NCBI GenBank assembly: GCA_030598065.1
Contig: JAUVQR010000005.1
Coordinates: forward strand, 1 to 22,072
DNA length: 22,072 bases
From: Planctomycetota bacterium
GTDB taxonomy: Bacteria; Planctomycetota; Brocadiia; Brocadiales; Bathyanammoxibiaceae
Direction of reading: 5' to 3'
Below, piece by piece: positions 8,880-20,754 of the stretch (the stretch's first letter is position 1; each line of letters starts with the position of its first letter). The notes beneath the pieces were generated by a model. That model saw only the letters and a program-made list of their open reading frames with translations. It was not told the origin of the DNA and searched no databases. The translations under genes and the position numbers were made by a program.

Positions 8880-10229
8880 CTACACCTCCACCCGCCGCCA
8901 TCTGCCGCGGCGGTACATTATGAAGACGGCTATGGCGCGGAGTATCCAGTCGAGGGCTGCGGCCAGCCAGACCCCGCCGAGCCCCCAGCCAAATACAATC
9001 CCGAAGAGATACGCCGCCGGAACGTGAAAAAGAAACGTCCCGATGATTGTAATCACCATCGGACTCACGGTATCTCCGGCGCCCCTCAGCCCCCCTGCGT
9101 ATACCATGTAGACGGCGAGCGCCGGCTGCTCGATTGCGGCAATCATCACGCATAGCACGGCCAGCTTCATCACGTCCTCTTCCGGCGAAAAGATGCCGAC
9201 CAGTTGAGCCGGAATTAGCAGAAACAGGGCCCCAAACGTACACATGATTATCAGGGCGCATATACAGCTTCTCTTCATGCTGAGCCGCGCAAGGTTCTGA
9301 TTCCCGGCGCCCAGGCTCTGCCCGACCAGCGTGGCCGTGGAGACGGCCAGCGCGTAACCCGGCATAAACGAGAATGACTCTACCCTTATAGCCACCTGGT
9401 GAGCCGCCAGCGCCGAAGTGCCCAACATCGCCACAATCTTCAAAAATACCAGATAGCCGGCCTGGGTGAGAAAGGCGTCCAGGGCCGCGGGCATGGATAT
9501 CCGGAGAATTCTTCTTATAATATCCATGTCCACAGGGAACATGTTGCCTACCGTTACCGTAATCAGCGCCTTCCCCCGGAACAGGATAACGAGCACCAGT
9601 AGCGCCCCCGCCACGTAAGATATGGCGGTGCCCCATGCCGCGCCGGCCACCTCCATCCTCGGGAATATCCAGATGCCGAATATCAGGAGCCAGTTGAATA
9701 AAACGTTCAGGCAGTTCATTACCAGCGTAATGATCAGCGGGGTTCTGGCGTCGCCTGCTCCCCTGAAGGCGGCATTGCAGGACAACATTATCAACCTGCA
9801 CGGCAGGAAACAGATGACAATCCTGAAGTAAAGCCCGCCCAGTTCCGCCACCTGCGGCTCCGCGCTCATAAAGTAAAGGACGTTCACGGCGGAAAGATAA
9901 AGAATCGGGGCGATGCAAACCCCAATGGCCGTGGCCAGCAGCAGGGACTGCGCCGCCGCCCGCTCTGCAACCGGTTTTTCCATGGCCCCCATGTATCTGG
10001 CCACAAGGCTGACCGTGCCAACCGAGGCGGAGGAAAAAACAATCGTCAAAACGAAGTTAAGCGCACCCGCAAGACCTACCGCGGCAATCGCCTCCGTACC
10101 GAGCTTACCTACCATGATGAGGTCAACAACAAACACCATCATGTGAAGCATGTTCTCCATGGCGGCCGGGACGGCCAGGCGGGCTATGTTGCTGTTGAGG
10201 TTTTCCTCTGTAGGTTCAAGTGTGTACAT
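8880..10229 (-). CDS. MATE-family efflux transporter
   Basis: 449-aa polytopic membrane protein with a MATE-type N-terminus (RLAVPAAMENMLHMMVFVVDLIMVGKLG) and an internally duplicated 6+6 TM organisation. Confidence 0.88.
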   Translation of the reverse strand: MYTLEPTEENLNSNIARLAVPAAMENMLHMMVFVVDLIMVGKLGTEAIAAVGLAGALNFVLTIVFSSASVGTVSLVARYMGAMEKPVAERAAAQSLLLATAIGVCIAPILYLSAVNVLYFMSAEPQVAELGGLYFRIVICFLPCRLIMLSCNAAFRGAGDARTPLIITLVMNCLNVLFNWLLIFGIWIFPRMEVAGAAWGTAISYVAGALLVLVILFRGKALITVTVGNMFPVDMDIIRRILRISMPAALDAFLTQAGYLVFLKIVAMLGTSALAAHQVAIRVESFSFMPGYALAVSTATLVGQSLGAGNQNLARLSMKRSCICALIIMCTFGALFLLIPAQLVGIFSPEEDVMKLAVLCVMIAAIEQPALAVYMVYAGGLRGAGDTVSPMVITIIGTFLFHVPAAYLFGIVFGWGLGGVWLAAALDWILRAIAVFIMYRRGRWRRVEV

Positions 10230-10313: not shown

Positions 10314-10342
10314 TTGACATCCATTGCCACAACCGATAGAAT
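10314..10342 (+). promoter_or_regulatory. Near-consensus sigma70-type promoter heading the acpS/radical-SAM/KS operon
   Basis: TTGACA (10314-10319), a 17-nt spacer, then TAGAAT (10337-10342). The TTG used as the start of the computed ORF is the -35 hexamer itself. Confidence 0.6.
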
Positions 10343-10391
10343 CCGTACACTTATAGATTGTTTTCTACCGTGCATTTTTAGAGGAGTGGGG

Positions 10392-10766
10392 GTGTTCATA
10401 GGCATAGACCTGGTAGAAGTAGAACGCATCCAGGACCTTTTTACCAGGCATAAGTCTTTTTTGGGACGTGTCTACACCCCGGGAGAGATAGAATACAGCT
10501 TCTCTAAGAAAAATACGTTTGAGCACCTGGCCGCCAGATTTGCCATAAAAGAGGCCGTTGTGAAGGCCCTGGGCACGGGGATGAAGTGGACAGACATTGA
10601 GATGCTAAATGATTCTTCGGGAAGGCCTTACCTCAATCTACATGGCAGGGCGAAGGAAATGGCAAAGGAAAAGGGCGTGGGTGCGTGGGATGTCTCTGTA
10701 ACGCACACCAAAGGACACGCGATAGGGCAGGTATTATTGGTAACCGGCACGCCGTCACGCAAATGA
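10392..10766 (+). CDS. acpS: Holo-[acyl-carrier-protein] synthase (4'-phosphopantetheinyl transferase, AcpS type)
   Basis: The GTG at 10392 has AGAGGAG 6 nt upstream and gives VFIGIDLVEVERI..., the canonical AcpS N-terminus. FAIKEAVVKALG and the ~124-aa size fit the AcpS family. Confidence 0.85.
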   Translation: MFIGIDLVEVERIQDLFTRHKSFLGRVYTPGEIEYSFSKKNTFEHLAARFAIKEAVVKALGTGMKWTDIEMLNDSSGRPYLNLHGRAKEMAKEKGVGAWDVSVTHTKGHAIGQVLLVTGTPSRK

Positions 10767-10839: not shown

Positions 10840-12318
10840 ATGGCAAACAAAAGAAAACTGGTGCTTATCAACCCGCATCCAAAGGGAAACGTGGGCGAAG
10901 AGAACGTCTCCGTGCTGACCCAGATGCCGGTAAACCTGGGATATCTGATATCATTGACCCCGGAGCACTGGGACGTGGACATAATAGACGAGACCCAGGA
11001 ACATGCCATAGACGACAACGACAACCTCGCCTTCCCGGGGGCGGACCTGGTCGGCATAACGTCTGTCAGCTATCAGGCCCCGCGGGCGTATAAGATAGCG
11101 GCCGCCTGCCGGAAGAAAGGTATTCCGGTGGTGATGGGCGGCGTGCATGCGACCATTTACCCCAATGAGGTGGCCAAGCACGTAGACTGCGTGGTGCAGA
11201 GGGAGGCCGTCTCTATCTGGGAAACACTTTTGTCGGACTTTGAGCACGGACGCCTCCAGAAGCTCTACGAAGGAGGTCTGACGCCCCTTGAAAATCTTAA
11301 GTTAATCTACCCCGACCGCGAATTCCTGAAAGAAAAATACGGATACCGTTACTCCGGCATTACAACAACGGCCGGTTGCCCGTTCACCTGTGAATTTTGC
11401 TCTGTGCCGCAGGCCCAGGGGCAAAAGTACCGCGAGAGGCCCATTGAAGACGTACTGGATGAAATGCAGGCCATCGAGGGTAAGTTCCGGGGGCTGGTGC
11501 TCACGGACGAAAATTTCTACGGACACAGTAAGAAGTCGAACGAAAGGGTCAGAAGCCTGTTCAAGGAGATGGTGGACAGGGGGATTTACCAGAACTGGTT
11601 CGGTTTTACCTCGCTCAACATATTTGAGGACGACGAGACCCTGGACTACATGGTCAGGAGCGGTTGCGTCGGAGTGCTCATAGGGATAGAGTCATTGAAC
11701 AAAGACGCCCTGGAGTCGATGAACAAGCACGTCAACCTGCGAATAACGATAGACAAGTATTACGAAGCGATTAATAACATCCGCAAGCATGGCATAGCCG
11801 TGTGGGGAACCGTAATCTTTGGCAACGACGCTGACTCGGTGGACACATTCGACGAGGTTGCAGATTTTGTGCTGGATACCAACCTTGATATAATGACCTG
11901 CGGAATACTTTGCCCGTTTATCAACACACCTCTCTACAAACGCCTGGAGAAGGGCAACAGGCTCTTCCGCACTGATTTCCCGGACGATTGGGTACATTAC
12001 ACGTCCCACCACCTCGTTCACATCCTTAACAACCTTTCCATTCATGAACTGTCTGACGGGATGGAACGCCTAAAAGAGCGTCTTTGGTCCACGGAGGTTA
12101 TCAGGAAAAGGTTCCAAAATTCGAGACAGGTGCTCAACAACAACAATTCCGCCATGTTTGCCCTCAAGGTCAACTGGGACTGGCGGGAAGTCATTGCACA
12201 CTTCATCGACAACCTGAACAAACTGGAAGCCTCCGGCGTCTACCAAGAAGCCCTCGACCGAATTGGCAAGAAGGAAAGATTCAACGAGGCCTCCAGCCTG
12301 CTAACCACAAAGGTCTAG
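10840..12318 (+). CDS. B12-binding-domain radical SAM enzyme (class B), paralogue 1
   Basis: 492 aa. The N-terminal cobalamin-binding-type Rossmann segment reads LVLINPHP...GITSVSYQAPRAYKIAAACRKKGIPVVMGGVHAT. The radical SAM cluster motif CPFTCEFC spans 11377-11400. The C-terminal region may be DUF4070-like, which is unverified. Confidence 0.88.
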   Translation: MANKRKLVLINPHPKGNVGEENVSVLTQMPVNLGYLISLTPEHWDVDIIDETQEHAIDDNDNLAFPGADLVGITSVSYQAPRAYKIAAACRKKGIPVVMGGVHATIYPNEVAKHVDCVVQREAVSIWETLLSDFEHGRLQKLYEGGLTPLENLKLIYPDREFLKEKYGYRYSGITTTAGCPFTCEFCSVPQAQGQKYRERPIEDVLDEMQAIEGKFRGLVLTDENFYGHSKKSNERVRSLFKEMVDRGIYQNWFGFTSLNIFEDDETLDYMVRSGCVGVLIGIESLNKDALESMNKHVNLRITIDKYYEAINNIRKHGIAVWGTVIFGNDADSVDTFDEVADFVLDTNLDIMTCGILCPFINTPLYKRLEKGNRLFRTDFPDDWVHYTSHHLVHILNNLSIHELSDGMERLKERLWSTEVIRKRFQNSRQVLNNNNSAMFALKVNWDWREVIAHFIDNLNKLEASGVYQEALDRIGKKERFNEASSLLTTKV

Positions 12319-12334
12319 AAGAGATACCCATATT

Positions 12335-13540
12335 ATGTCCAGAGTAGTTGTAACAGGCCTTGGTTTAGTGACAGCCATTGGTTCAAACTTAAAGGAATCC
12401 TGGGAAGCGATGCTTAACGCCCAGGACGGTACCGCAGAAATCACATCGTTTGACACCTCCAAGTACAGGGTCCACCGCGCCTGCGAATTAAAGTCTTTGA
12501 ATTCAAACGGCAACAATAAGCAGAAGGAAAAATATAACGTTTACGATTGCCTGTACGCAGCGGCCAAAGACGCCTTTCAGGACAGCGGCATATCCGATTG
12601 CCAGCACCTTCAGCCCGACAGAGTGGGTATTTCCATCGGGACACTGGCCGGAGAGCTATCCGCCTTTGAGCAGACGCTCAGGAAACACCCCAACAACAAG
12701 GCTGACGGGTTCAGTATGGACGTGGTCTGCAGTTATCCTCCCATGACCCTGTCTACCCAACTGGCGGAAGATTTCAACGTTGAAGGCCCTAACGTTATAC
12801 TGATAAACGCCTGCTCATCGGGCAACCATGCACTGTGCTGGGCCTTCGACATGCTGCAGGACGGAAGTGTCGACGCGATGGTGGTGGGCGGCAGCGACGT
12901 GGTGCCGCAAACGGAATTTACCCACTTCCACAACCTGAAGGCGCTGGCGCCGGAAAAATGCCAGCCCTTTGACAAGAACAGGCAGGGCCTGGTGGTGGGC
13001 GCAGGAGCCGGAGTGCTCATCCTTGAGACCTTTGAACACGCGAAGAAGCGCGACGCAAAAATATATGCGGAAGTCATGGGCTACGGCCTTAGCAGTGACG
13101 GTTTTCACATGACCGCTCCTCACCCGAAAGGAGTAGGCGCCATCAGGGCTATGGAAAAGGCCCTCACACACTCAAAGCTCTCTTACAAGGACATAGACTA
13201 TATAAGCGCGCACGGCACGGGTACGTCGCTAAACGACAAGATGGAGACGCTTGCACTCAAGGCCGTCTTCAAGGAAAGGGCTAAAGAGACCCCGTGCAGT
13301 TCGGTGAAGTCTATGATCGGCCATACCATGGGGGCCGCAAGCGCCATCGAGTCGGTAGTTTGTTGTCAGACGATAAGTTCCGGTGAACTCCCGCCAACCA
13401 TAAATTACGAGACAAAGGACCCGGAATGCGACCTGGACTGCGTACCGAATGAGGCGCGAAAAAAGCCGGTTAAATTCGCCCTGAATAATTCCTTTGCCTT
13501 TGGCGGTAACAATGCCAGTACTGTCTTTGGTAGGGTATGA
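12335..13540 (+). CDS. Beta-ketoacyl synthase, FabF/KAS II-like, with an intact Cys-His-His triad
   Basis: 401 aa. The active-site Cys160 sits in INACSSG (tgc at 12812-12814). The two histidines are in SAHGTGTSLND and KSMIGHTMGAAS. Confidence 0.9.
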   Translation: MSRVVVTGLGLVTAIGSNLKESWEAMLNAQDGTAEITSFDTSKYRVHRACELKSLNSNGNNKQKEKYNVYDCLYAAAKDAFQDSGISDCQHLQPDRVGISIGTLAGELSAFEQTLRKHPNNKADGFSMDVVCSYPPMTLSTQLAEDFNVEGPNVILINACSSGNHALCWAFDMLQDGSVDAMVVGGSDVVPQTEFTHFHNLKALAPEKCQPFDKNRQGLVVGAGAGVLILETFEHAKKRDAKIYAEVMGYGLSSDGFHMTAPHPKGVGAIRAMEKALTHSKLSYKDIDYISAHGTGTSLNDKMETLALKAVFKERAKETPCSSVKSMIGHTMGAASAIESVVCCQTISSGELPPTINYETKDPECDLDCVPNEARKKPVKFALNNSFAFGGNNASTVFGRV

Positions 13541-14775
13541 AAAGAAGGGTAGCAATAACCGGCATAGGCGTAATCTCTCCGCTGGGGTTTGGACATGAGG
13601 AGTTCTGGAAGAACCTCACCGAAGGCCGCACCGCGATAGGCCCGATAACGTCTCTGGACGTATCGAACTACCCCTGCAAATTGGCCGCGGAAGTCAAGGG
13701 CCTTAACCCGTCTGATTATCTGGGCGACAAGGGCCTCAAATATCTGACGAAAGGCACAAAGTTCCTTGCCTCCGCCTCAAAACTAGCCCTTGAAGACGCC
13801 GGCCTTATGCAGAGCAGCCACAACCCAGACGGCTTCGGTGTGATAATAGGCTCGGCTCTCGGCAACTATCCCCAAACCACTGACTACACGTATGTCATCC
13901 TCAAAGAGGGACCGGAAAAACTGCTGCCCATGGACAGTTATGACGTCGCTCTAAACTCGTCCACCAACTTTGCCTCGGTATTCTTTAAACTCACCGGTCC
14001 CTCAAGAACCATCACCTCGGGCTTCACGTCCAGCACCGACGCCATCGGCAACGCCTTCACCCTGGTGCAAAAAGGCAGGGCCGACGTGCTGATAGCCGGC
14101 GGGGTGGAACAGATATCTCTCGACAGTTACCTTATATTCCTGATGCGAAAACTGCTGGCGGGCTCACAAGACTCCACGCCGGAGATAAGCGCACCGTTCG
14201 ACATGCGTCGGAACGGGTTCATACTCAGCGAGGGCAGTTACGTCTTCGTGCTGGAGGATATGGAATCCGCGACCAGGCGGGGCGCGCGCATATACGCGGA
14301 AGCGACGGGTCACGGCTTGACCTACATGGGGGCAAAGAGGTTCAGCCTGGAAGAAAAGGTAGACAAGGCCAAGGCCGCCATGGAGCAGGCGCTCCAGCGG
14401 GCCGGGCAGCCGAAGGAGTCGCTTGCGTTAATCTGCGCCAACGGCAACTCCTCTACGCAAACGGACCTCATAGAGGCCAGGGCAATCCAGTCGCTGCTGG
14501 GGGACCGCACCAAGGAGGTGCCGGTCTGTTCCGTAAAGTCTCAGTGCGGTGAATGTTATGGCGCTTCCGGAGCGATGCAGATGGCCTTGTGCCTGCTGGC
14601 TATCGAGAAATCTGCCATCCCGCCCATGATAGGCTATGAAGTGCCAGACAAAGAGTGCGACCTGGGTTTTGTGCTCAATCAGGAGCGCAGGCAAGACACG
14701 AAGGTCGCAATGGTGAACAGCCTCGACCACGACGGAAACTGCTCCTGCCTTATACTTGAAAAAAGGGATATGTAA
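13537..14775 (+). CDS. Ketosynthase-like partner lacking the catalytic triad (chain-length-factor-like)
   Basis: 412 aa with a KS fold. Aligned by eye to the upstream KS, Cys becomes Phe163 (ttc at 14023-14025, TSGFTSS), the first His becomes Asn (ICANGNSS) and the second His becomes Glu (CGECYGA). Its ATG overlaps the KS stop (GTATGA at 13537-13540). Confidence 0.85.
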   Translation: MKRRVAITGIGVISPLGFGHEEFWKNLTEGRTAIGPITSLDVSNYPCKLAAEVKGLNPSDYLGDKGLKYLTKGTKFLASASKLALEDAGLMQSSHNPDGFGVIIGSALGNYPQTTDYTYVILKEGPEKLLPMDSYDVALNSSTNFASVFFKLTGPSRTITSGFTSSTDAIGNAFTLVQKGRADVLIAGGVEQISLDSYLIFLMRKLLAGSQDSTPEISAPFDMRRNGFILSEGSYVFVLEDMESATRRGARIYAEATGHGLTYMGAKRFSLEEKVDKAKAAMEQALQRAGQPKESLALICANGNSSTQTDLIEARAIQSLLGDRTKEVPVCSVKSQCGECYGASGAMQMALCLLAIEKSAIPPMIGYEVPDKECDLGFVLNQERRQDTKVAMVNSLDHDGNCSCLILEKRDM

Positions 14776-14857: not shown

Positions 14858-16867
14858 ATGGTCGGCTTATTTGACCCAATAAACATAGGTACACTCACGT
14901 TAAAGAACCGTCTGGTTATGACGGCCATGGACCTTGGCTACTCAAACGACGGCCTTGTCAACGACCGTTTTATCGATTTCTACACCGAGAGGGCCGACGG
15001 CGGCACGGGCCTTATCGTCGTAGGCGGATGCTACCCGGAGCGGAACGGCAAGGTATGGAAGAGCATCCTCGGACTGGACGACGACCGCTGCATACCTTCT
15101 CTCACCAGATTCACCGAGGCCATGCACCGCCACGGCGCCAAGACCGCGGCCCAGATACTGCACGGCGGGCGTTACGCCTCCAGCCTGTTCTCCAAAATGC
15201 AGCCCGTCTCGGCGTCAAACATACCGTCACGCCTGGCCAGAGACACCTCCAGGGCTCTGAGCGCCTCTGAAATTAAACAGGTCATACATGGCTACGCGAC
15301 GGCCACAAAAAGAGTAAAAGAAGCCGGTTTTGACGCCGTGGAGATTCACGGTGGCATGGGCTACCTCATCAACCAGTTCCTGTCTCCTATAAGCAATAAG
15401 AGGTCTGACGAATATGGGGGCGGCCTGGATAACAGAATGCGCTTTGCCGTGGAGACCATTGAGGCCATTAGAGAGTCAGTGGGTGACGACTTCCCCATAA
15501 TCTTCAGGCTGTCCGGGGATGAGCTGATGGAGGGCGGTCTCAAGGTCCGGGACAACATAGAAGTAGCCCAGAGACTGGCAAAGGTCGGCGTGGACGCCTT
15601 CCACGTATCTCCCGGCTGGCACGAAAGCAAGGTGCCTATAATGATAATGGTAATCCCGAGGACGGCCTACGCTGTACTGGCCGCCGCCATACGGGAGAAC
15701 GTGGACATACCGGTTATATCCGGCATACGGATTAATGACCTGGCGCTGGCCGACGAACTGCTCAGGGACGGACAGACCGACCTGGTAGCCATAGGCAGGC
15801 CCCTGATAGCCGACCCCGAGCTGCCAAAGAAGTATAAGGAGGGAAGACTCGAAGATATAAGGACCTGCATCGCGTGCAATCAGGGCTGTTTCGACGAGCT
15901 CCTCAATATGAGACCGGTCACCTGCCTGTACAATCCCAGAGCGGGCCGAGAACGGGAGTATAACGTAACGCCCGCGGCTAAAAAGAAAAAGGTCATGGTG
16001 GTCGGCGGCGGTCCCGGAGGGATGGAAGCCGCCAGTGTCGCGGCGCAGAGGGGGCACGACGTGACCCTGTACGAAAAAACGGGGATACTGGGAGGCCAGC
16101 TCTGCTACGCCTACAAACCGCCCGGCCGTGAGGAATTCGCCAACGTGATTACCTATCTGAAGAGGCAGGTCAAGAAGGAAGGAGTAAAGGTGGTCCTGGG
16201 AGTGGAAGTGACCCCGGAGACCGTCAAGACGGAACAACCCGACACACTGATAGTGTCGACCGGCTCTACGCCGTCGGTACCGCCGATACCCGGCATAAAC
16301 AGCGATAGCGTGGCGCTGGCAATGGACGTGTTGGACGGAAAGGCGCCGGTTGGCCGGGAGGTAGTCATAATCGGCGGCGGGACTGTGGGCACCGAGACCG
16401 CCCTGTATGTGGCAAAGCTGGGCAGCATGCGGCCGGACGTAGCCATGTTCCTGCTGAAGAACGACATAATAGACCTGCCGACTGCCCTTAAGAAGGTCTC
16501 CAGGGGCCACAGAAACGTCACCATACTCGAGATGAAGAGGAGGGTGGGCGGCGGTTTTGGCATCTCCACCCGCTGGGTTATGGAAAGGGAGATAGAGGAC
16601 GCAGGCATAAAATCAATTACAAAAATAACGGTCAAAGAGATAAGGCAAGGACCTGAAGGCTGTGTGGTGGTGTACGAAAAGGACGGAAAGGAGACGTATA
16701 TACCCGCGGATACGGTTATAATCGCCACAGGCTACATCCCCAACGACACACTGTCCAAACACCTGAACGGCCTTGTACCTGAGGTATACACCATCGGTGA
16801 TTGTGTAAAGGTAAGGACCGCGTTGGAGGCGATTCATGAAGGTTTTAAGATCGGGCTCACTGTATGA
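14858..16867 (+). CDS. FadH-type 2,4-dienoyl-CoA reductase / enoate reductase family flavoprotein (OYE-like FMN domain, 4Fe-4S, FAD/NAD(P) domain)
   Basis: 669 aa, compared with 672 aa for E. coli FadH as I recall it. It has an OYE-like N-terminus, the cysteine motif CIACNQGCFDELLNMRPVTCLYNP and the dinucleotide fold VMVVGGGPGGMEAA. Confidence 0.87.
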   Translation: MVGLFDPINIGTLTLKNRLVMTAMDLGYSNDGLVNDRFIDFYTERADGGTGLIVVGGCYPERNGKVWKSILGLDDDRCIPSLTRFTEAMHRHGAKTAAQILHGGRYASSLFSKMQPVSASNIPSRLARDTSRALSASEIKQVIHGYATATKRVKEAGFDAVEIHGGMGYLINQFLSPISNKRSDEYGGGLDNRMRFAVETIEAIRESVGDDFPIIFRLSGDELMEGGLKVRDNIEVAQRLAKVGVDAFHVSPGWHESKVPIMIMVIPRTAYAVLAAAIRENVDIPVISGIRINDLALADELLRDGQTDLVAIGRPLIADPELPKKYKEGRLEDIRTCIACNQGCFDELLNMRPVTCLYNPRAGREREYNVTPAAKKKKVMVVGGGPGGMEAASVAAQRGHDVTLYEKTGILGGQLCYAYKPPGREEFANVITYLKRQVKKEGVKVVLGVEVTPETVKTEQPDTLIVSTGSTPSVPPIPGINSDSVALAMDVLDGKAPVGREVVIIGGGTVGTETALYVAKLGSMRPDVAMFLLKNDIIDLPTALKKVSRGHRNVTILEMKRRVGGGFGISTRWVMEREIEDAGIKSITKITVKEIRQGPEGCVVVYEKDGKETYIPADTVIIATGYIPNDTLSKHLNGLVPEVYTIGDCVKVRTALEAIHEGFKIGLTV

Positions 16868-16942: not shown

Positions 16943-17686
16943 ATGTCTTTAAAAGGAAAGGTCGCTGTCGTTACGGGCGGCACCAGGGGCATCGGGAGGG
17001 CGATAGCGCTTGAGCTCGCCGCGAACGGCGTGGACGTCGCCTTCTGCTACGCCAAGAACGTCGAAAAGGCAAAAGAGGTAGAGAGTGAGATAAAGAAGCT
17101 GGGCGTAAGGGCGCTGCCGATGCAGAGTGACGTCTCCGACTTCGCTCAGTCAAAAGAAATGATAGCTAACGCCATAAAGGAGCTCGGTAAGATTGACCTG
17201 CTGGTCAACAACGCCGGCATAACCAGAGACAAGATAATCATGATGATGTCGGAGGATGACTGGAAGTCGGTCATAGACACCAACCTGACCGGCGTCTTCA
17301 ACTGCACAAAGGCCGCCGTGGTACCGATGATGAAGCAGAGGAGCGGCTCCGTAATAAACATAACCTCCGTCAGCGGTCTTGTCGGGATGGCGGGCCAGAC
17401 CAACTACTCGTCCTCAAAGGCGGGGATAATCGGGTTTACCAAGGCGCTGGCCAAGGAGGTGGCCAGACGGGGAGTCAGGGTCAACGCCATAGCCCCCGGA
17501 TTCATTGACACCGAGATGGTGCAGGCCATCAACCAGAAATACCTGGACGAGATGCTGAAACTGGTGCCCCTTGCCCGCGTAGGCAAGGCCGAGGAGGTGG
17601 CACACGTGGTGACGTTCCTGGCCTCAGACCAGGCCAGCTATATAACGGGCTGCGTAATCAACGTAGACGGCGGCATGGCCATGTGA
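16943..17686 (+). CDS. fabG: 3-oxoacyl-ACP reductase (SDR family)
   Basis: 247 aa with GGAG 8 nt upstream. It carries VTGGTRGIGRAIA, NNAG and the catalytic S...YSSSK motif. Confidence 0.9.
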   Translation: MSLKGKVAVVTGGTRGIGRAIALELAANGVDVAFCYAKNVEKAKEVESEIKKLGVRALPMQSDVSDFAQSKEMIANAIKELGKIDLLVNNAGITRDKIIMMMSEDDWKSVIDTNLTGVFNCTKAAVVPMMKQRSGSVINITSVSGLVGMAGQTNYSSSKAGIIGFTKALAKEVARRGVRVNAIAPGFIDTEMVQAINQKYLDEMLKLVPLARVGKAEEVAHVVTFLASDQASYITGCVINVDGGMAM

Positions 17687-17737: not shown

Positions 17738-18088
17738 ATGCTCTTTCTTGTGAAGGTAGAGATAGAAAAACTTAACCAGATGCCGGTCAAGGATTTTTTT
17801 CAGCTCTTGATAAAGGAATGGGAGTTTTATGAACGGATGAAGAAGAGGGGCAAGGTGCTGGCGGGCGGAAAGCTGGCCGGGAGACGCGGGGCGGCGGCCA
17901 TCTTCGACGCCGAGGACCACGCCGAAATCGAGGCAATCGTGACAAGACTGCCGCTCTTCCCCCTGTTCACAAAGATAGAGATAACGCCGCTGGTGGACCA
18001 GGAAAAGGCCCTGCTGGACGCCCGCAGGATGTTTCAGATGGTGAAAGACCTCGATACCATGATATTCCCCCCGGACAAACCATCATAA
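17738..18088 (+). CDS. Muconolactone delta-isomerase-like small alpha+beta barrel protein
   Basis: 116 aa with GAGGTGA upstream. MLFLVKVEI..., ...IFDAEDHAEIEAIVTRLPLFPLFTKIEITPL aligns by eye with CatC-type MLFHVKM...FDV...LPLFPYMDIEV. Confidence 0.65.
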   Translation: MLFLVKVEIEKLNQMPVKDFFQLLIKEWEFYERMKKRGKVLAGGKLAGRRGAAAIFDAEDHAEIEAIVTRLPLFPLFTKIEITPLVDQEKALLDARRMFQMVKDLDTMIFPPDKPS

Positions 18089-18159
18089 AATTATAAAATT
18101 AGCGTCCGCGGCAGGGCGCACCCTTATACGCTGCAAGCTACATGCAGAAAGGAAGTCTG

Positions 18160-18893
18160 ATGAAACTGGTAAGGATTCTTCATGCCGTTCTTTTTTTGTT
18201 ATGCCTGACGGCATTGACCCAGGACGTGCGCGCGGAACAGGCGGAAAAAGAGACGGCCGGGAAGCCGCACGTAGACGTAGGCACCTTCCTTCAGGAAACG
18301 TTTAAGATGAAGGTGGGCGGCAATATGAGCACCCTCGCCGCCTGGCTGCCGTTCGAGTTCTACGTGGAATCCGCTTACGCCGAAGGCGGTCAATCCAGGG
18401 AACTCCTGAGAAAAGATTTTCAATTCATACAGCCGTACCTCACCATAATCGTTCAAAGCAGCGTTGACCAGCTGGACGGCACCGCTTCGTACGAGAGTGA
18501 AGAAGCCATCCGCGCAAGGGCCGTGGTGAGACAGAAGGACGTGCCGAGGTCAAGCCGCTGGACGCCAAGGATATACCTCCTATGGTATCTGCCACCATGA
18601 TAGCCATGAAGTCAATATTATCGGCGGAAGGCGACCCCAGCGGGGCCAACATGCACGTCCTGGTGTTTCCAAACAAGGGCAAGGACGGCAAACCCATAAT
18701 CGACGCCACAAAGAAGGGTAAGCTGGTGCTGGTGCTGAAACCCGACAAGCAGTTCAACGAGACCGTGTTTATGTGGCGCACCCCGTTCGACGCGATGACC
18801 GCCGCCCCCCCATGCGCCAAGTGCGGAGAGAACCTTTCCGCCCAGTGGTCATACTGCCCCTGGTGCGGCGCCGAACTGCCCCATACGCACTAA
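18160..18893 (+). pseudogene. Signal-peptide protein with a C-terminal zinc ribbon, split by an apparent 1-nt frameshift near 18540
   Basis: ORF 18142-18600 probably starts at 18160 (GGAAG upstream) and begins with the signal peptide MKLVRILHAVLFLLCLTALTQDVRA|EQ. ORF 18582-18893 is open in the -1 frame from 18501. Reading across gives ...VVRQKD / (G)AEVKPLDAKDIPPMVSAT.... The C-terminus reads CAKCGENLSAQWSYCPWCG. Confidence 0.5.
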
Positions 18894-19208: not shown

Positions 19209-19237
19209 AAAAAAAAGGGCACGACATCGTCGTGCCC
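19209..19237 (-). terminator. Rho-independent terminator of the minus-strand CrtI-like/radical-SAM operon
   Basis: The minus strand reads GGGCACGAC-GAT-GTCGTGCCC (19237-19217) followed by T8 (19216-19209), about 70 nt after the stop at 19309. A second 8-bp hairpin, CGCAGGGC/GCCCTGCG (19267-19286), lies between the stop and this terminator. Confidence 0.85.
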
Positions 19238-19308
19238 CTACGTTTATTTTATTATGAAGCGGGTAGCGCAGGGCTTTAGCCCTGCGGCGCCACCTTGAAG
19301 GTTGTTGA

Positions 19309-20754
19309 CTACGCCGGGAGTGAGATGGTCCTTTCCTGCGTGGAGTAGGTGTCTTTGTAGTAGTCGCCGGATTCCTGCAGCTTGCGCAGGTTTTCAAGGA
19401 CCTGCAAGAAAACCTGGTCCCAGTCCTGGCTGACCCTGAGGGCGAACATGGAGTTGCGCGGGTCGCTGGTCTCCTGCATCGAGACCCTGAATTTCTTGCG
19501 GATGTTGTCGCCCGCGTACACGTTGTCGTAGACGTACTGCATGCCGTCAACAAACTCGTCCAGCGTCATGTCCACAAACTTGTGGACCACGTTGGCGGTC
19601 TCGTAATACTCCCAGTCCTCCGGCAGATTCCTACGAAACAGCCTTTTTTCGGAATCCAGCCTGTAGAATAACGGCGTCTTGGGAAAGGGACAATCCAGAC
19701 CATACGTAAGGATGTCTACCTTGCAGTCGTGTACAAAATCCACCATCTTCTTGAAAGAATCCTTGTCGTCGCCGTCGGCGCCGAAGACGACCGAGGCCCA
19801 TACGATAAGCCCCGCGTCATGTATCTTCCTGATACACTCCTTATAATTAGTGGCTCCCAGTTTCAGATTCACCCTCTTGCCCATCTTCTTGAGCACTTCG
19901 GGGTTGGTGCTCTCTATGCCTACCAGGAAGCCGAAGTTGCCGGACTTTCTCATCAACTGAAGCGCCTCCGCGTCCTGCGAGATATTGAGCGCGGTAAAGC
20001 CCAGCCAGTCCTTCTTGAGTTCCCTGTCTATCATGCCCCGGAAGAGTTCCTTGGCGCGCTCGGCGGAGCGCACGCTGTGACCGTAGAAATTGTCTTCGGC
20101 GAACATCAGGCCCTTATAGTCGGTGGCCGCCATCTCCTCCAGCACGTCTTCAACGGGCCGCTCACGGTATTTTTGTCCCTGGAAGGTGGGTACGCTGCAG
20201 AAATCGCAGCGGTTGGGGCAACCCTTGGTGGTTACTATAGAAGAGAACTTGTAGCCGTACTTCTTCTTCAAGAGTTCTCTGTCGGGATGTACTTTCTTAA
20301 GGATTGACAGGTGGGGAAGACCGCCGTCGTAGCGTTTCTGGAGCTTACCGGCCTCGAAGTCCTTTATGACCTGCGGCCAGACAGTTTCAGCTTCACCCGT
20401 GATGACCGTATCCACGTACTGCACCGCCTCTTCGGCACACACGGAGGCGTGGATACCGCCCATTATCGTGGTGCAGCCATGTTTCTTGGCCAGCTTGGCG
20501 ATATGGTAGGCGCGCGGGGCCTGATAAGTCAGGGCCGTGAGACATACTATGTCAGGGGGGTCAAAGGTTATATCGTCTCCGGCGTCATTCAGCGCCGACT
20601 CGATGTTCTCGTCTACAACGTCAAACTCCCAATCGTCGCCCGGCGTGAGCGCTGCGATATAGCCCAGATTCAACGGCATCTGGACTATTACGCTTATGCT
20701 CTCCTCGCCGTGACGGCCCGGAGGATGAGGGTTCACGAGCATCATCTTCTTCAT
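19309..20754 (-). CDS. B12-binding-domain radical SAM enzyme (class B), paralogue 2
   Basis: 481 aa and colinear with the 10840-12318 product; roughly half the positions are identical by eye. Shared strings include NPHP, QMPxNLGY, YQAPRAY, MGG(I/V)HA, GKLQK, GQKYRERP and NSMFALxV. The cluster motif CPNRCDFC spans 20197-20220. GGGAGA lies upstream, inside the end of the preceding gene. Confidence 0.88.
   Translation of the reverse strand: MKKMMLVNPHPPGRHGEESISVIVQMPLNLGYIAALTPGDDWEFDVVDENIESALNDAGDDITFDPPDIVCLTALTYQAPRAYHIAKLAKKHGCTTIMGGIHASVCAEEAVQYVDTVITGEAETVWPQVIKDFEAGKLQKRYDGGLPHLSILKKVHPDRELLKKKYGYKFSSIVTTKGCPNRCDFCSVPTFQGQKYRERPVEDVLEEMAATDYKGLMFAEDNFYGHSVRSAERAKELFRGMIDRELKKDWLGFTALNISQDAEALQLMRKSGNFGFLVGIESTNPEVLKKMGKRVNLKLGATNYKECIRKIHDAGLIVWASVVFGADGDDKDSFKKMVDFVHDCKVDILTYGLDCPFPKTPLFYRLDSEKRLFRRNLPEDWEYYETANVVHKFVDMTLDEFVDGMQYVYDNVYAGDNIRKKFRVSMQETSDPRNSMFALRVSQDWDQVFLQVLENLRKLQESGDYYKDTYSTQERTISLPA

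Follow-up and report, generated by a model that had tools for sequence, protein, structure and literature searches.

Paralogous B12-domain radical SAM proteins in convergent operons of a Brocadiales genome and their relatives in undivided operons

What chemistry calls for two copies of one enzyme at the two ends of a block of fatty-acid-type genes? The question is raised by a 22,072-nucleotide contig from a Brocadiales genome (JAUVQR010000005.1 of assembly GCA_030598065.1; analysed whole and called the window here), in which two paralogous radical S-adenosylmethionine (rSAM) proteins with B12-binding domains, copy 1 and copy 2, lie on opposite strands on either side of genes for a ketosynthase (KS), its non-canonical partner (KS') and associated enzymes. 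A first-pass annotation had proposed that the pair stems from an old duplication with subfunctionalisation and would carry out two successive or regiospecific radical C-C bond-forming steps on one substrate. [quoted passage not shown] Their orthologues lie in two published gene clusters of Kuenenia stuttgartiensis, Cluster I and kuste2802-2805, which are most simply explained as the halves of a single pathway; that the copies belong together in one pathway is supported by the operons of non-anammox bacteria, where the paralogues stand in tandem. The bracketing seen in the window is best read as a layout peculiar to this genus, in which the halves of an older, single operon lie tail to tail.

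Identity of the two copies

Copy 1 and copy 2 (Table 1) are both present as open reading frames (ORFs) and align colinearly over 466 residues with 47% identity, 69% positives and 4 gaps (BLASTP, E 2e-169), so that the resemblance first noticed from shared strings is far beyond chance. As annotated, each has a B12-type domain (PF02310, scoring 37.4 and 44.2 bits for the two copies against a cut-off of 32.1) followed by PF04055 with a CxxxCxxC motif, copy 1 reading GCPFTCEFC at this place and copy 2 GCPNRCDFC; C180, C184 and C187 are invariant among 91 family sequences. The strings YQAPRAY, GQKYRERP and FYGHS occur in both proteins, and NSMFAL, listed as a fourth, occurs in copy 2 only, copy 1 reading NSAMFAL. 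The segment after the cluster motif had been described as divergent and is actually the best conserved (61-68% identity in alignment columns 161-240, including QGQKYRERP.EDVL.EM). The C-terminal divergence had likewise been drawn too wide, at about 60 residues: the weakest parts are columns 401-440 (25%) and just the last ~20 residues. The coupling of one copy to the KS pair and of the other to the CrtI-like gene stands: the KS gene starts 16 nt after copy 1, and the CrtI-like stop sits 4 nt before the start of copy 2, to which it is translationally coupled.

Between copy 1 and the rSAM of an acpS-rSAM-KS-KS' locus in the closed 4,406,153-bp, Kuenenia-size genome G018, tblastn gives 66.8% identity (68% in another search), and copy 1 groups with that rSAM in trees (as A_Kuenenia_G018). 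Monophyly and shared acpS-rSAM-KS-KS' synteny assign it, on sequence and gene order, as the orthologue of Kuste2803. The kuste2802-2805 cluster has been described as acpS-rSAM-KS-non-canonical KS (Rattray 2009, PMC2649909; PMC4790861), the same order as around copy 1; it differs in that the window operon runs on into a FadH-type reductase, FabG and a muconolactone-isomerase-like (MIase-like) gene. Among the five Brocadiales families (f1 to f5, f1 being that of the window), the FadH-type gene follows the KS pair in f1, f2, f3 and f5, and FabG with the MIase-like gene in f1 and f2, whereas none of these is adjacent in Kuenenia/Brocadia-type genomes.

Copy 2 is 71% identical to K. stuttgartiensis P0081, which on CP049055.1 is preceded by ACP, a FabZ-like protein, KS, KS' and a CrtI-like flavoprotein; the CrtI-like protein of the window is 54.7% identical to the Kuenenia gene upstream of P0081. 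Copy 2 is monophyletic with the Kuste3608 group and stands right after the CrtI-like gene, and the upstream genes are confirmed in the same-genus genome G016, which has the full ACP-FabZ-KS-KS'-CrtI-rSAM order. By the same kinds of evidence, copy 2 is assigned as the orthologue of Kuste3608, the B12-rSAM of Cluster I (KustE3603-3608; PMC4790861; PMC10139942; bioRxiv 10.64898/2026.05.19.726425). B12-rSAMs have long been proposed, without proof, for formation of the ladderane cyclobutanes (PMC2649909, PMC9204698, PMC10139942, PMC13459092), and the rSAM pair and Cluster I are already published, unproven ladderane candidates. Liao et al. 2022 have kuste2805, 3603, 3605 and 3606 gained at the anammox origin and do not treat the rSAMs.

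Phylogeny and operon layout

The genome holds three paralogues rather than the two proposed from the window. The third, a 477-aa protein encoded at C15:1091-2524 (locus L002), is 53% identical to copy 1 and 55% identical to copy 2; its 3.5-kb contig is without fatty-acid genes. Three trees, a 193-row FastTree, a 61-row quick IQ-TREE and a 56-row careful IQ-TREE (unrooted), all recover three anammox clades: A with copy 1, B with copy 2 and the Kuenenia and Brocadia proteins, and C with copy 3. An outgroup-rooted version of the careful tree was dropped, its outgroup branch of length ~5 having collapsed the backbone, and the unrooted tree with an approximately unbiased (AU) test was used instead. 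Clades A and B are each monophyletic across the five Brocadiales families and each sister to non-anammox proteins, in agreement with the proposed old duplication; judged from these trees, the A/B split predates both the Brocadiales radiation and the separation from the non-anammox carriers. Clade C is confined, among the genomes searched, to the basal family f1, one clade C database row being labelled 'Brocadiaceae bacterium'. At eight positions of the alignment, clade A has one fixed residue and clade B another, including D-E versus E-D at 223-224 just before an invariant NF.G motif, Q251/K, V277/F, T324/S and N436/R. Eight fixed positions are weak evidence, and we rejected them as a strong sign of new function; subfunctionalisation of the copies is suggested by these residues together with co-retention and differing partner genes.

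Retention in anammox bacteria is nearly complete. At least one copy was found in 80 of 81 Brocadiales genomes and at least two in 74 of the 81, A and B co-occurring in these 74; the genomes with fewer copies are incomplete assemblies (61-93% complete). Both copies are kept even in reduced genomes of 1.5-2.5 Mb, and each closed Brocadiaceae genome carries a single A copy and a single B copy. Apparent extra copies in closed genomes, Kuenenia-size ones included, were rejected as members of other B12-rSAM families (34-41% identity), and an apparent clade B pseudogene in G005 ('2 TAA') proved to be a match running past the natural stop of an intact gene in a full Cluster I. In a sampling across the phylum the family was present in 16 of 16 Brocadiales and in none of 285 other Planctomycetota genomes; within the order of the carrier genome GCA_037446155.1 (G082) it occurs in one of 20. 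These counts make it a core family of anammox bacteria that is rare and patchily distributed elsewhere. A GTDB-wide scan gave, among the matches listed, four Brocadiales loci and, at 25-36% identity, distant B12-rSAMs, and was set aside as uninformative on taxonomic range.

Copy 1 orthologues always directly precede a KS/KS' pair, and copy 2 orthologues always directly follow the CrtI-like gene that ends Cluster I. The acpS-rSAM(A)-KS-KS' core is present in f1, f2, f4 and f5, and f3 has rSAM(A)-KS-KS', acpS not being detected in the stretch examined. On a 230-kb contig of G016, ACP-FabZ-KS-KS'-CrtI-rSAM2 faces acpS-rSAM1-KS-KS'-FadH-FabG-MIase tail to tail, with a secreted protein next. The bracketing layout is therefore present in the window and in G016, and is demonstrable in this genus only: the A and B copies are ~186 kb apart in Kuenenia-size G018 and ~21-22 kb apart in several f2 genomes, and G010, a 98% complete genome of the same family, has its three copies on three large contigs. 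The f3 genome G003 carries one clade A copy and two clade B copies (C14:50217-51641 and C10:18394-19824; 67% and 66% identity to copy 2), a sign that the Cluster I rSAM was duplicated within that lineage. A Scalindua-type f2 genome has three tandem distant B12-rSAM genes (G020:C1:113215-118141; 38-41% identity to copy 2), possibly another multi-rSAM lipid or natural-product locus.

Outside anammox bacteria, relatives at 50-60% identity occur in metagenome-assembled genomes (MAGs) labelled Acidobacteria, Blastocatellia, Planctomycetota and Myxococcota. An Acidobacteria contig reads ACP-FabZ-KS-KS'-CrtI-rSAM-FabG. Two rSAM genes stand side by side in Planctomycetota QQUA01 (ACP-FabZ-KS-KS'-CrtI-rSAM-rSAM-KS-KS'-FabG), in a JGI contig (3300082212) that also has a MIase-like gene, a second KS pair, ferredoxin, ECH and FabG, and in a 3.4-kb Myxococcota contig (rSAM-rSAM-KS, partial). 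Three stand in tandem in the Logan contig SRR13254584_18761 (ACP-FabZ-KS-KS'-CrtI-rSAM-rSAM-rSAM-KS-KS'-ECH) and in GCA_037446155.1 (ACP-FabZ-KS-KS'-rSAM x3-KS-KS'-MIase-ECH-FabG-ACP-FabH-AcpS and onward). One carrier MAG or contig shares two of its three rSAM clusters with a Blastocatellia contig. The GCA_037446155.1 locus (L055, on JBBIJE010000001.1) is without a CrtI-like gene, and it also holds an AcpS of its own together with FabH, a second ACP, a transporter of the MacB type and a third KS pair.

The gene order of these operons can be matched to the two anammox clusters. In the three-rSAM operons L054 and L055 the best matches run rSAM2-like, rSAM3-like, rSAM1-like, and in L054, L055 and L057 the upstream KS pair best matches the Cluster I pair and the downstream pair best matches the KS and KS' of the window; a MIase-like gene recurs in L055 and L057, and FabG in non-anammox operons. 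In the careful tree, clade A joins tandem position 3 with support 100/100 and clade B joins position 1 with 100/97, anammox B being sister to the position 1 group at 97/95. Position 2 and clade C each form a solid group in that tree. A constraint uniting clade C with position 2 is not rejected and gives a marginally better likelihood (AU p = 0.52). The three clades can thus be matched one by one with the tandem rSAM genes of the undivided operon, the link between C and position 2 being one with which the data are compatible. The tandem copies of QQUA01, the Acidobacteria and the Myxococcota are each other's closest relatives in the careful tree and form a separate group, which points to lineage-specific duplication there.

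HzsA was not found in the two carrier genomes that could be searched (G081 and G082, of 5.7 and 3.5 Mb), while the control G018 gives two copies at 65% identity; the searched carriers are therefore not anammox bacteria. The literature calls the cluster unique to ladderane producers, a claim that needs qualifying, because collinear cassettes occur in MAGs labelled non-anammox. Ladderane clusters of the antiSMASH type in non-anammox taxa are loosely mentioned (PMC9902471, PMC11968836). In the literature searched, with its incomplete coverage, we found no report of the third clade, of the match between clades and tandem positions, or of a proposal that the two clusters are halves of one operon.

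Predicted reaction and rival explanations

Family assignment narrows the chemistry to a group of enzymes. All NCBIfam models score both window proteins below cut-off. TIGR04072 (rSAM_ladder_B12), whose name refers to ladderane-type lipid clusters and whose domain architecture is the same, is a separate family: the window proteins score 73.4 and 77.7 bits against its cut-off of 360, and no protein in the whole genome reaches that cut-off. Other matches are partial (HpnR 58-75 bits versus 650, HpnJ 74-79 versus 578, BchE 72-80 versus 481, the PhpK family 96-98 versus 600), and HpnP is not among the 25 best NCBIfam families listed. Membership of TIGR04072 or of the hopanoid, BchE or PhpK equivalogs was rejected on these scores. 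For copy 1, AlphaFold2 run with 91 family sequences gives a confident model (pLDDT 92.7, pTM 0.90) with a Rossmann-like N-domain, and Foldseek aligns its Rossmann domain, rSAM barrel and helical C-domain with those of AprD4, TsrM, MgmA, CysS, OxsB and TokK (TM about 0.55-0.7 at 13-19% identity; E 1e-13 to 1e-18 for the last five). The nearest solved chains by sequence are AprD4 (6fd2, E 5e-13), 9ccb (MgmA) and TsrM, and AprD4 is the top match by fold too (TM 0.68-0.73, 18% identity). The model places the family in the class B architectural group, a fold that assigns no reaction, and cobalamin use is predicted.

Two comparisons show what such enzymes can do. The non-methylating class B enzymes BchE and HpnJ share the architecture and give the partial matches above, and a published similarity network groups the 'ladderane' enzyme with them (PMC9204698); they differ in that the window proteins fall far below both cut-offs and in their unrelated substrates and neighbourhoods. 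TokK/ThnK and CysS share the fold and act on carrier-linked substrates, in sequential steps and as paralogues within one cluster, but they are 13-16% identical, serve antibiotic pathways as methyl-transfer enzymes and lack partners of the KS/KS' or CrtI-like kind. CysS and TokK have been crystallised with pantetheinylated substrates.

We propose that the first KS pair, with FabZ and FabG, would build a short unsaturated acyl-ACP, to which the CrtI-like enzyme would add double bonds or in which it would rearrange them. The rSAM paralogues would then each carry out a different radical step on the chain, in the order B, (C), A, and the modified chain would be extended by the second KS pair together with FabG and the reductase of FadH type. 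For the ladderane end of anammox lipids, this pathway is the foremost candidate route. The rSAM step is predicted to be either ring-closing C-C bond formation or methyl transfer, between which the present evidence does not discriminate. Placing the rSAM steps before the second KS module fits a ladderane at the omega end that is made first, with the linear C8 part added later, by our own reasoning and the type b/c proposals of PMC10139942. A precedent for the mechanism is the pair GrsA/GrsB, two paralogous B12-domain rSAMs that close carbocyclic rings successively and regiospecifically in one lipid (PMC13459092); they act on isoprenoid tetraethers instead of ACP-bound acyl chains and make cyclopentane instead of cyclobutane.

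Several observations weigh against this proposal. The link between these genes and ladderanes is a candidate one drawn from sequence; kuste3603-3608, when expressed in E. coli, yielded no new fatty acid (PMC4790861), and heterologous production of the rSAM did not succeed (PMC10139942). The cassette is found in bacteria not known for ladderanes, so the chemistry of the family need not be ladderane-specific: it may be more general, related lipids may be undiscovered in those bacteria, or extra anammox-specific genes may be needed. The taxonomy of the non-anammox carriers is given by MAG labels only. The succession B, C, A of the radical steps is deduced solely from gene order, and clade C is matched to position 2 only tentatively. 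Most characterised class B enzymes are methylases, and AprD4, the closest solved structure, does not use cobalamin, so that cobalamin dependence is predicted from the Pfam match.

The last two points lead to the competing explanations. The main rival, unlikely in our estimate, is that the paralogues are cobalamin-dependent C-methyltransferases of different regiospecificity that would add methyl branches to an acyl-ACP and form no rings. Methylation is the commonest class B chemistry and, for such enzymes, no less ordinary a reading than C-C bond formation. Fatty acids with a methyl branch in mid-chain, 10-methylhexadecanoic acid for one, do occur in anammox bacteria, and methylated lipids in some Acidobacteria. 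The family is present in organisms not known to make ladderanes, the best sub-threshold NCBIfam match is the PhpK methyltransferase family, the structural neighbours TsrM, MgmA, CysS and TokK are all methylases, and sets of class B methylase paralogues within one cluster are common (BotRMT1-3, PoyB/C, ThnK, TokK; PMC12931638, PMC13459092). Against it, the genes have, tightly and without exception, KS/KS' pairs and a CrtI-like enzyme around them, a setting for which the mere addition of methyl branches has no need, and no methylase equivalog cut-off is reached. That the family is core in every anammox family and found in none of the other Planctomycetota genomes fits an anammox-typical trait, and the similarity network cited above sets the 'ladderane' enzyme beside non-methylating ones.

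The likeness to AprD4, first by both sequence and fold and echoed by a partial match to NCBIfam rSAM_AprD4, would be explained if the N-domain were a degenerate B12-like fold without cobalamin and the enzymes carried out a 5'-deoxyadenosyl-radical dehydration, desaturation or isomerisation of a hydroxy- or enoyl-ACP. We regard this as improbable: AprD4 is just 18% identical, PF02310 is above its gathering score in both copies, the GG.H motif of the Rossmann domain is invariant across the 91 family members, and cobalamin-related cbi genes are among those displayed in a comparison of phyletic patterns between anammox and non-anammox bacteria (PMC9387917). Least probable of all, and very much so, is that the copies are redundant isozymes kept for dosage or differential regulation. 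They do share one domain architecture and all core motifs and differ at only eight clade-fixed positions, but they are 47% identical, their split is older than the Brocadiales radiation and the separation from non-anammox carriers, both are kept in essentially every genome, the reduced ones included, and each has its own invariant neighbour genes.

Returning to the reading of two non-redundant copies in one acyl-tailoring pathway, a bolder extension of it seems possible to us, if doubtful: Cluster I and kuste2802-2805 would be halves of one ancient operon whose three rSAMs act in the order B, C, A between two KS modules, and the undivided pathway in rare MAGs, some labelled Planctomycetota and Myxococcota, without hydrazine synthase where searched, would make undiscovered radical-cyclised or radical-branched, possibly ladderane-like lipids. 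To our knowledge, ladderane biosynthesis has been an open problem since 2002, with no enzyme tied to it, and anammox bacteria are not genetically manipulable. The two published candidate clusters have the look of a single pathway, so joint reconstitution, including the third paralogue in genomes that have it, is preferable to testing on its own the six-gene cluster that failed in E. coli. The undivided operons with two or three rSAMs in non-anammox bacteria are alternative sources of the enzymes and possibly of hosts and products; if the extension holds, work on ladderane-type chemistry and its enzymes could move away from anammox bacteria, which grow slowly and are genetically intractable.

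Window, source genome and gene inventory

The window is the whole of a 22-kb contig from a 1.87-Mb MAG of 369 contigs that is 91% complete. Its nearest database proteins are from 'Planctomycetes bacterium RIFCSPHIGHO2_02_FULL_50_42', 'Candidatus Brocadiales' and 'Candidatus Hypogeohydataceae', and we treat the source lineage as a small-genome, basal anammox family. A profile search of the assembly did not find hydrazine synthase alpha (HZS_alpha, PF18582). The same profile does find it in same-genus G016, and 8 of the family's 13 genomes have it, but it is also missed in many Brocadiaceae assemblies that are 97-100% complete. We therefore take the missing gene for an assembly gap, hzsA seemingly being hard to assemble, and rejected the alternative of a Brocadiales lineage that lost anammox and kept the lipid genes.

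Table 1. Features of the window, in order of position.
Feature	Position	Strand	Evidence and remarks
MATE-family transporter	8880-10229	-	divergent from acpS
Promoter-like match, divergent, facing the MATE gene	10268-10241	-	12/12; consensus match only
Sigma-70-like promoter match ahead of acpS	10314-10342	+	11/12; consensus match only
acpS, holo-ACP synthase (Kuste2802-like)	10392-10766	+	PF01648, NCBIfam AcpS models
rSAM copy 1 (clade A), B12-binding + radical SAM	10840-12318	+	492 aa; PF02310 + PF04055; assigned orthologue of Kuste2803
KS, FabF-like (Kuste2804-like)	12335-13540	+	PF00109/PF02801; directly 3' of clade A rSAM in all five families
KS-like partner KS', non-canonical (Kuste2805-like)	13537-14775	+	PF00109/PF02801; synteny
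FadH/OYE-type flavoenzyme	14858-16867	+	Oxidored_FMN + Pyr_redox_2
FabG, 3-oxoacyl-ACP reductase	16943-17686	+	TIGR01830, 331 bits, above its cut-off
MIase-like small protein	17738-18088	+	PF02426
Two overlapping ORFs in different frames	18142-18893	+	152 aa with signal-peptide-like start; 103 aa with zinc-ribbon end
Terminator-like hairpin, ~70 nt past rSAM copy 2 stop	19215-19239	-	11-bp stem + T-run; consensus match only
rSAM copy 2 (clade B), B12-binding + radical SAM	19309-20754	-	481 aa; PF02310 + PF04055; assigned orthologue of Kuste3608
CrtI-like flavoprotein (Kuste3607-like), 5' end cut by contig end	20759-22072	-	partial PF01593 + TIGR02734 matches

The divergent promoter-like sites and the terminator-like hairpin fit two convergent operons. 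The acpS gene can be read as a long, TTG-started ORF (10314-10766) that overlaps one promoter-like site; homology begins near residue 25-28 of that ORF, and the likelier start, judged from the sequence, is the GTG at 10392, which is preceded by AGAGGAG and would give a protein of ~124 aa. The MATE transporter gene is placed next to acpS in the same arrangement in f1, f2 and f5 (G016, G026 and G005), and it may belong to the cluster. The two overlapping ORFs downstream of the MIase-like gene correspond to one intact 237-aa ORF in same-genus G016 (L043:15097-15810, minus strand), a comparison by which the split in the window is a frameshift or assembly error.

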